Positions 37,701-40,700 of a stretch of 64,000 nucleotides of DNA are shown here, one piece after another. Numbering within the stretch: the first letter of the stretch is position 1; each line of letters opens with the position of its first letter. The stretch comes from Escherichia coli. Its GTDB lineage: Bacteria; Pseudomonadota; Gammaproteobacteria; Enterobacterales; Enterobacteriaceae. The stretch lies in the NCBI RefSeq assembly GCF_003334335.1, contig NZ_QOWQ01000001.1; one strand, 5' to 3'. Position numbers: made by a program.

Positions 37701-40700
37701 TTTTCGGCGCGTAATACATGATGACGTTCATCCCGGTGAATTGCTGCATTACCTGCAACAGTACGCCAAGGAACACCGCGCGGCGGAAGTTGCTGTTCTC
37801 TTTAAACAGCGCCCAGCCACTCTGTTTAACCTGCAAACTTTCACGGATTTCATCCAGTTCGCGTTTCGCTTCCGCGCTGGTGTCACGCAGGCGTAGCAGC
37901 ACGCGTTCGGCATCAACAAAACGGCGTTTGGCGGCAAACCAACGTGGGCTGTCTGGCAGGAAGAAGACACCAATCAGCAGCAAAATTGCCGGGATGATAA
38001 TCACACCCAGCATCCAGCGCCATGCACCGGTGTAGCTGAAGGCGGTATCAGAAAGATAAGCACCGAGGATCCCGATAGTGATCATCAACTGATACATCGA
38101 GATCATACTGCCACGAATTTTTTCCGGCGCAATTTCAGAGAGGTACAGCGGTGCGGTATAAGAGGCCACACCCACCGCCAGCCCCAGTAGAACGCGGGAA
38201 AGAATCAGTACTTCAACGTTTGGCGCAGCCGCAGAGAACAGCGAACCGGCAACAAACAAAATTGCGCCGATCATCAGGCTCTTTTTGCGCCCGAGTTTAA
38301 AGGAGAGCCAGCCGCTGCCCACCGCACCGACTGCCGCACCGAACATCATGGAGCTTACGACCCATTCTTGCGTGTGCGAAGTAATCTGGAATTCATCTGC
38401 AATAAACGGCAGTGCGCCAGCAATTACACCGATATCCAGGCCAAAGAGTAATCCCGCCAGAGCGGCAAGGAAGCAGACGAAAAACGTCATTGCCTTGTTT
38501 GACCGCCCCTGTTTTTTAGCGTCAGGCATGATGCCCTCCAATATGGTTATTTTTTATTGTGAATTAAGATAGGTGAGTACGACGTAAAAAGATGTGAAGC
38601 AAATCACATCAGTGTAATCGCTTACACTAACATTTATCTTAGTTATGATTTAAGTGCATGAAAATAATTGAGTTATATCATCATAGATTAAACGCTGTTA
38701 TCTGCAATTAAGACTTTACTGAAAAGAAATGTAACAACTGTGAAAACCGAATAATAATATGAAAATATTACAAATCTTTGTCTGTTGTGGTTGGTGTAAT
38801 CGGTTTCAGTTGTGATGATAATCTGCGGTGAAACGTGATCAGGAAGAATGATGTTATTGTGCGGGCGGTTTTTTTGCCGGATGCGGCGTGAACGCCTATC
38901 CAAAAGAAAAAGGCCAGCGCGAGGCTGGCCTTTGAACGCAGGTGAAGAAAGATTACTTCAGACCGGCAGCATCGCGCAGCAGCTGCGCTTTGTCGGTTTT
39001 TTCCCACGGGAAATGTTCACGACCAAAGTGACCGTATGCTGCGGTTTCTTTGTAGATCGGGTGCAGCAGATCCAGCATCTGAATCAGACCGTATGGGCGC
39101 AGGTCGAAGAACTCACGTACCAGCAGGGTCAGTTGTTCAGAAGGCACTTTCTCAGTACCGAAAGTTTCTACCATGATGGAGGTCGGTTCAGCCACGCCGA
39201 TTGCGTAGGAAACCTGAATTTCACAACGATCGGCCAGGCCAGCAGCAACGATGTTTTTCGCGACATAACGTGCTGCGTAGGCTGCGGAACGGTCCACTTT
39301 TGATGGATCTTTACCAGAGAATGCACCGCCACCGTGACGCGCCATGCCGCCGTAGGTATCAACGATAATTTTACGACCAGTCAGACCGCAGTCACCCATT
39401 GGGCCACCGATAACGAAACGACCGGTCGGGTTGATGAAGAATTTGGTGGCAGAAGTCAGCCATTCAGCGGGCAGAATTGGCTTGATGATCTCTTCCATTA
39501 CCGCTTCTTGCAGCGATTTCTGGTCGATCTCTTCAGAGTGCTGAGTGGAAAGCACGACAGCATCGATACCAACGATTTTGCCGTCGTCATACTGAAAAGT
39601 CACCTGGCTTTTCGCGTCCGGGCGCAGCCACGGCAGAGTGCCGTTTTTACGCACTTCAGCCTGACGCTGTACCAGACGGTGTGCATAGGTGATAGGTGCT
39701 GGCATCAGCACGTCGGTTTCATTAGTTGCGTAGCCAAACATCAGACCCTGGTCACCCGCGCCCTGTTCCAGCGGATCGGCACGGTCAACGCCCTGGTTGA
39801 TGTCAGGAGACTGTTTGCCGATAGCGCTCAGAACCGCACAGGAGTTAGCGTCAAAGCCCATGTCGGAATGCACATAGCCAATTTCGCGAACGGTGTTACG
39901 GGTGATCTCTTCGATGTCTACCCAGGCGCTGGTGGTGATTTCGCCGCCAACTAAAACCATGCCGGTTTTTACGTAGGTTTCGCAAGCAACGCGTGCTTTC
40001 GGATCCTGTTCGAGGATCGCGTCTAAAACGGCATCAGAAATTTGGTCAGCAATTTTGTCAGGATGCCCTTCAGAGACGGACTCGGACGTAAAAAGGTGTT
40101 TTGCCATATTTAATATCACCTAAAGAGAATTTGGTTAGCTCAAACTGTTGTGTGGATTTTCTGTGGTAGCGGATCCTACCACGACTCTGCAGGTTAAAAA
40201 CACTGGCAGTCTGAGTGTTAATCGGTATGGATGGATTAACATCTGGATGGCTATTTTAGGTCAATTCTTCACCCTATTTCCACTTTTTTTTGAATCGTGT
40301 CTCATTCTGTTAAAAACGTGGCTGGAAATTTTTCCTGACAATGCCGGCATTCTGCGTATTTATCTTTTGCAATTTTCTGCCATTGTGGGGTATAAAACGC
40401 GGCGCGCGGCTTAAATAAAAAGCACACGACGTTTCTTTCGTGTTGCCACTTCCAGCCGGGTTGAAATCAGAGTTTTGGCTTGTGGGTTCGTCTTAACAGG
40501 CGGCCGTGGAGGTGATACGAAATAATGAACCGTTGTCTGCTGCTTAACCTGTCTCACCGTTCTGGTGAAGATTCGTTCCCCGCACTCTGCATCTCTGCTT
40601 TGCATACCTGCCGATGTTATACCCATCTCGGCGCTTCTCAGGATTCAAGAGCTGGTTACAGTTACTGAGGACTGAACAAGGGCGCTCTTGTAAAAACAAG

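Follow-up and report, generated by a model that had tools for sequence, protein, structure and literature searches.

The galP promoter region of Escherichia coli: adjoining CRP and GalR/GalS sites, a distal GalR/GalS operator, and a NagC operator

The DNA upstream of galP in the 64-kb window (the whole stretch of E. coli sequence analyzed here, 64,000 nucleotides) is the already known and characterized galP promoter of E. coli K-12. We hold it to be very probable, at roughly 94%, that the region is the K-12 galP control region, a gate that opens on cAMP and galactose together and to which NagC adds a brake. Compared with the published K-12 promoter, the sequence is identical, the operators, the NagC 23-mer, the CRP 16-mer, and their relative coordinates all match, and no difference was found. 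The value of the case lies in calibration, as the original prediction had found a real, characterized promoter from the sequence alone, with both of its sites base-exact. What is mildly new is comparative only, namely, the recurrence of the same module at galS and at mglB of Pasteurellaceae, and a distance between the two GalR/GalS operators that appears to change in steps of whole helical turns. Control of galP matters in practice, since in production strains deficient in the phosphotransferase system (PTS) glucose enters mainly through GalP. Mutations in galR, galS, and nagC that derepress galP have been selected repeatedly, and loss-of-function mutations in galR/galS have been selected for GalP-dependent glucose uptake.

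Positions 38400 to 39000 of the window match E. coli K-12 MG1655 with 100% identity, and the K-12 record gives this stretch as the spacer between metK and galP. The stretch was found in all complete E. coli genomes searched (5426/5426), and the contiguous metK-galP spacer is missing from only three of the 5426. Both genes lie on the minus strand and are codirectional, with metK ending at 38953, so that both motifs lie upstream of galP, as the original prediction had placed them. The coding DNA of galP is 100% identical to that of K-12 MG1655, annotated there as galP (WP_001112301.1), and its translated product is a sugar-porter transporter of the MFS type (NCBIfam sugar porter family, 507 bits). 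Among the loci listed, the GGAG of the Shine-Dalgarno sequence is almost invariant across orthologous galP leaders. At the other end, the intrinsic terminator of metK, approximately 20 nt past the metK stop codon, bounds the control region of galP on its upstream side. Along the strand that encodes galP, the elements follow one another as metK terminator, distal operator, AT-rich spacer, proximal operator, CRP site, −10 element, NagC operator, GGAGGG, and ATG (Table 1). A scan of 38300-39100 against Rfam returned nothing real, the only match being to a Brucella small RNA model, whose 19.8 bits fall short of the gathering score of 229.

Table 1. Coordinates of the galP control region in the window, with the loci used for comparison of operator distances
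Feature	Position	Strand	Remarks
galP coding sequence (galactose/proton symporter)	37135..38529	−	ORF list; ATG at 38529
Shine-Dalgarno sequence GGAGGG	38534..38539	−	4 nt before ATG; read from the sequence
NagC operator CTTAATTCACAATAAAAAATAAC	38546..38568	−	Spans about −10 to +13, across the transcription start; identical to the published 23-mer
Transcription start (inferred)	38558	−	Back-calculated from −61.5/−243.5 and centers 38619.5/38801.5
−10 hexamer TATCTT (TAyCyT in orthologues)	38566..38571	−	Conservation
cAMP-CRP site TGTGATTTGCTTCACA (galP sense)	38593..38608		Center 38600.5, about −41.5/−42.5; unique core match; published ChIP-seq
Proximal GalR/GalS operator GTGTAAGCGATTACAC (galP sense), OI(galP)	38612..38627		Center 38619.5, −61.5 in published numbering; consensus and published
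Distal GalR/GalS operator CTGAAACCGATTACAC (galP sense)	38794..38809		Center 38801.5, −243.5; 1 mismatch (position 1); published
metK intrinsic terminator	38909..38933	−	10-bp stem, 6 G-C pairs, T-run; terminator scan
Longer-distance comparison loci	L028, L047, L058, L072, L074, L075, L079, L098, L101		Versus Enterobacteriaceae-type loci

On the plus strand the CRP site reads TGTGAAGCAAATCACA, the reverse complement of the galP-sense form TGTGATTTGCTTCACA, and its core comprises two perfect pentamers with a 6-bp spacer. The exact pattern TGTGA-N6-TCACA has a single match in the 64-kb window, compared to 0.09 expected per shuffle. The original prediction gave the coordinates of this site correctly to the base and called it near-ideal, a description that holds for the core; against the full 22-bp consensus, 15 of 22 positions match by eye. 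A CRP ChIP-seq study in enterotoxigenic E. coli (ETEC) H10407 assigns TGTGATTTGCTTCACA to its galP peak (PMC4287617), and Shimada (2011) recovered galP, a known CRP target, by genomic SELEX in K-12 (PMC3105977). Published data document both CRP occupancy and the need of galP transcription for cAMP-CRP (PMC4073488 for the latter).

The proximal GalR/GalS operator (GTGTAATCGCTTACAC on the plus strand) lies upstream of the CRP site in the galP sense, with 19 bp from center to center. Its predicted position as a gal-operator-like palindrome was exact; the gap to the CRP site, put at 4 bp in the same prediction, is in fact 3 bp (38609-38611). The operator is the sole match without mismatch to the GalR consensus GTGKAANCGNTTNCAC in the window (0.02 expected); allowing up to two mismatches brings the count to 8, where 2.8 would be expected. 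A GalR operator is defined as a 16-bp hyphenated dyad, GTGNAANC.GNTTNCAC, with critical positions 3, 5, 9, and 15 intact (PMC5110547), and the proximal operator conforms to this dyad with 0 mismatches. Qian et al. (2016) list GTGTAATCGCTTACAC as the galP operator OI(galP) at 3088186-3088201, inferred as the site beneath the GalR ChIP-chip peak that tops their table with a score of 115.4, and galP is among only three promoters that were upregulated in a galR deletion (PMC5110547). The operator offsets agree between the window and the coordinates of Qian et al., with 83 bp to the galP ATG and 182 bp to the second operator. The original prediction named published binding sites lying elsewhere as grounds for abandoning it; the published sites coincide with both motifs.

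Further elements place the CRP site relative to the start of transcription. The inferred start agrees with the conserved −10 element, of which T, A, and the last T never vary, nor does their distance to the CRP site, across 33 orthologous promoters (among the loci listed); these TAnnnT positions lay outside the search pattern with which the loci were collected. TAnnnT begins at the 30th base past the CRP center, which under the usual −12 to −7 convention puts CRP at −41.5, whereas the published operator numbering puts it at −42.5 rather than at the canonical −41.5. No −35 element is recognizable, and a sigma-70 consensus scan gave no −35/−10 pair at the galP promoter; the absence of a −35 element fits expectation for a class II CRP promoter. 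Two matches from that scan are on the plus strand and directed away from galP, and we take them as chance occurrences in AT-rich DNA. The galP promoter is thus assigned as a class II CRP promoter, with a predicted position. The start and the class II assignment were derived by back-calculation from the operator numbering and from sequence conservation. A literature search on the class II position returned only the galETK promoters "galP1/galP2" and not the galP gene.

The third regulator is NagC, whose operators are 23-bp AT-rich dyads overlapping a promoter. The 23-mer in the window equals the published galP site, which is listed in the FITBAR paper (PMC3098098). NagC strongly represses galP according to El Qaidi (2009), as that work is cited in PMC3098098, and a galP-lacZ fusion with the single NagC site showed approximately 5-fold regulation by NagC (PMC4288165). 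The original prediction's interpretation, known catabolite and galactose control of galP, is supported by the published GalR operator, the published CRP site, and the recovery of galP as a CRP target by SELEX; it was incomplete in that it missed both this NagC operator (38546-38568) and the distal GalR operator (38794-38809).

The regulatory logic is known from earlier work. PgalP is inactive without cAMP-CRP, and bound GalR inhibits CRP-mediated activation, which results in AND logic (PMC4073488). Galactose-responsive repression is likewise documented in the literature by this logic, by the upregulation of galP in the galR deletion, and by the selected galR/galS mutations. We propose that a TATCTT −10 element lacking a usable −35 element would make the promoter dependent on cAMP-CRP bound at TGTGATTTGCTTCACA, which, approximately 41.5 to 42.5 bp upstream of the start, would replace the −35 contact from the class II position. 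A GalR/GalS dimer on the near-perfect operator (−60.5/−61.5) could occupy the place of the C-terminal domain of the RNA polymerase alpha subunit and, when bound there, would cancel CRP activation until D-galactose releases the repressors, an outcome that is published. By analogy with galETK P1, we infer that GalR/GalS interferes either with the alpha C-terminal domain or with CRP-dependent isomerization. The second operator at −243.5 would probably cooperate by looping, as its conserved spacing suggests, and NagC, lying across the start from about −10 to about +13, would be a direct block to the polymerase. NagC repression is presumably lifted by GlcNAc-6-phosphate, its binding and repression being published. 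In the reporter system of a preprint, titration of GalR or GalS led to an apparent activation of PgalP (bioRxiv 10.1101/2021.11.16.468742). This observation conflicts with the picture of a simple repressor, so that GalR is perhaps not a pure repressor in every context, and context-dependent effects of GalR at −61.5 are possible.

The arrangement extends far beyond E. coli. Using one genome per species, a pattern scan for TGNAANCGNTTNCA-N5-GTGA-N6-TCAC returned at least 120 loci, a sample that is conditioned on the presence of both sites and so shows the spread of the module rather than the frequency of galP genes without it. These loci fall into three classes, the promoters of galP, of galS in Enterobacterales, and of mglB in Pasteurellaceae. 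Among the loci listed, the galP class includes Escherichia, Enterobacter, Kluyvera, Pseudescherichia, Cedecea, Siccibacter, Pluralibacter, Mangrovibacter, Pantoea, Tatumella, Rosenbergiella, Rahnella, and others; here the operator stands 94 to 105 nt ahead of the ATG. In at least 42 galP loci from many genera, the operator, the 3-bp gap, the CRP site, TAnnnT, and the Shine-Dalgarno sequence with its ATG stand at fixed distances. The operator-3 bp-CRP module behaves as a reusable cassette of the gal regulon, found at galP, galS, and mglB.

The distal operator, 182 bp from the proximal one, is published as OE(galP) at 3088004-3088019 (PMC5110547), and −243.5 and −61.5 are reported as the native galP operator positions (bioRxiv 10.1101/2021.11.16.468742). 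Among the listed loci of the galP class, a second operator with the consensus TGAAA.CG.TTACA is conserved amid fully diverged flanks. Of 31 Enterobacteriaceae-type loci, 29 have their two operators 180 to 185 bp apart, and eight loci from Pantoea, Tatumella, and [Erwinia] mediterraneensis have them 199 to 204 bp apart (all among the loci listed); in three of these eight, the second operator has three mismatches to the consensus. The typical distances, approximately 182 bp and, in these Erwiniaceae-type genera, approximately 203 bp, differ by approximately 21 bp, about two helical turns, which suggests that helical phase is preserved and would fit a phase-dependent loop. From the conserved inter-operator spacing we propose DNA looping as the probable way in which the two operators cooperate.

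An alternative hypothesis for the TGTGA...TCACA palindrome is that it functions mainly as an RNA hairpin on the minus strand, a terminator or attenuator that stops read-through from metK before galP. The terminator scan does flag 38610-38591, where a 7-bp stem is followed by TTTTTACG, and the hairpin RNA folds at −9.3 kcal/mol (z = −4.3). However, every palindromic CRP site gives such a hairpin, the T-run matches a flank at which the CRP consensus is itself T-rich, the stem holds only three G-C pairs, and metK already has a far stronger terminator at 38933-38909. Moreover, CRP occupancy is documented for the same sequence (PMC4287617, PMC3105977) and the promoter needs cAMP-CRP (PMC4073488). 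The match is the CRP palindrome itself; termination is rejected as the primary function of 38610-38591, and we regard this hypothesis as highly improbable; the palindrome may exert a minor secondary terminator effect. We give next to no credence to the idea that the motifs are chance look-alikes, or sites of another regulator of the LacI family, that do not control galP. Consensus matches alone are weak evidence, as the surplus of matches with up to two mismatches in the window illustrates, but each exact match occurs once only and greatly exceeds chance expectation, GalR and CRP ChIP data exist for both sequences (PMC5110547, PMC4287617), and the arrangement is kept ahead of galP across genera whose flanks have diverged. 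Uniqueness, occupancy data, and conservation together exclude a chance origin.

A different question is whether proximally bound GalR acts chiefly by looping to the operator at −243.5, in a repressosome like that of galETK, so that any interference on the spot with CRP or the alpha domain would be secondary and the proximal operator alone ineffective. The tightly kept inter-operator distances and the retention of the distal operator against fully diverged flanks speak for such a mechanism, but the 120-nt contexts of galS and mglB that carry the same module show no second operator, and the loop at galP is putative. We consider a predominantly loop-based mechanism unlikely, if worth keeping in mind. 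Rather more doubtful is the proposal that a phase-locked GalR loop of approximately 180 to 200 bp is an obligatory, underdescribed part of galP control instead of an accessory site. This proposal starts from operator distances that fall into two steps across Enterobacterales although the intervening DNA has diverged completely. If true, the loop would enclose the AT-rich spacer marked "HNS" in the metK>galP row of a genomic SELEX table (PMC3946193). The reading that we prefer remains the gate for cAMP and galactose with its NagC brake.

In the galETK operon, promoter P1 has its GalR operator OE at −60.5 and a class II CRP site at −41.5. The galP promoter resembles P1 in that approximately 19 bp separate the center of a GalR operator from that of the class II CRP site downstream of it, and in having a second operator that would allow looping. 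In contrast to galP, galETK has two overlapping promoters, an internal operator at +53.5, a 113-bp loop stabilized by HU, a weak, one-armed CRP site, and basal transcription independent of CRP. At galP, the CRP site has perfect arms, basal activity is absent, the second operator stands 182 bp upstream, and NagC has an operator as well. An outline of the gal operon is given in the introduction of PMC5110547.

Like galP, the galS promoter carries the operator-3 bp-CRP module with identical spacing, and its operator is likewise at −61.5 (bioRxiv 10.1101/2021.11.16.468742). Among the loci listed, this version occurs in E. coli, E. albertii, Enterobacter, Citrobacter, Pantoea, and others (L081:11416-11448, L015, L018, and at least about 50 more), and the gene downstream encodes GalS (720 bits). 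It differs from galP in its ATGGAAACGGTTACA-type operator, in having the isorepressor itself downstream, and in having no NagC site. The same operator-CRP module stands ahead of mglB in Pasteurellaceae, among the loci listed in Haemophilus, Rodentibacter, and Pasteurella atlantica (L008, L022, L085, and others), where the Rodentibacter product is MglB (612 bits). Here the difference from galP is that the bacterial family is another and that the transporter is of the ABC type.

Within E. coli, an alignment of six representatives spanning 93 to 100% identity was used to follow the region. The proximal approximately 130 bp, between about 38627 and the ATG, does not vary among the six, the CRP site and the proximal operator being unchanged even in divergent representatives. 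Most of the 5 to 7% divergence sits in the half of the spacer farther from galP, where the distal operator is constant while its immediate flanks vary.

Several minor observations concern this distal half and its surroundings. The spacer at 38630-38950 is unusually divergent, with 3424 of 5426 genomes only 90 to 95% identical to K-12 (461 bp). A REP-like sequence, GCCGGATGCGGCGTGAACGCCTATCC, lies at 38877-38901, with the metK terminator on one side and the distal operator on the other, and this part of the spacer holds several strain-to-strain substitutions. Strains of the K-12 type do not have a 13-bp stretch, TACCTCACCGCGG, at approximately 38902, just past the metK terminator. Two of 5487 places matching the metK-galP spacer are on plasmid-labeled E. 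coli records, which could be captured chromosomal DNA or a mislabeled replicon. Within the AT-rich spacer that separates the GalR operators, ATAACA-18-TATAAC at 38672-38701 on the minus strand fits the "constitutive promoter" predicted for metK>galP by genomic SELEX with RNA polymerase holoenzyme (PMC3946193). Finally, strain PEC240 (L007:720-1520) carries an element of the IS1 family inside the distal galP operator (38794-38809 in the window), flanked by an 8-bp target duplication, AAACCGAT. Of the two resulting operator copies, the galP-proximal one is without positions 1 to 3, and so without the critical G of position 3, whereas positions 12 to 16 are missing from the other.
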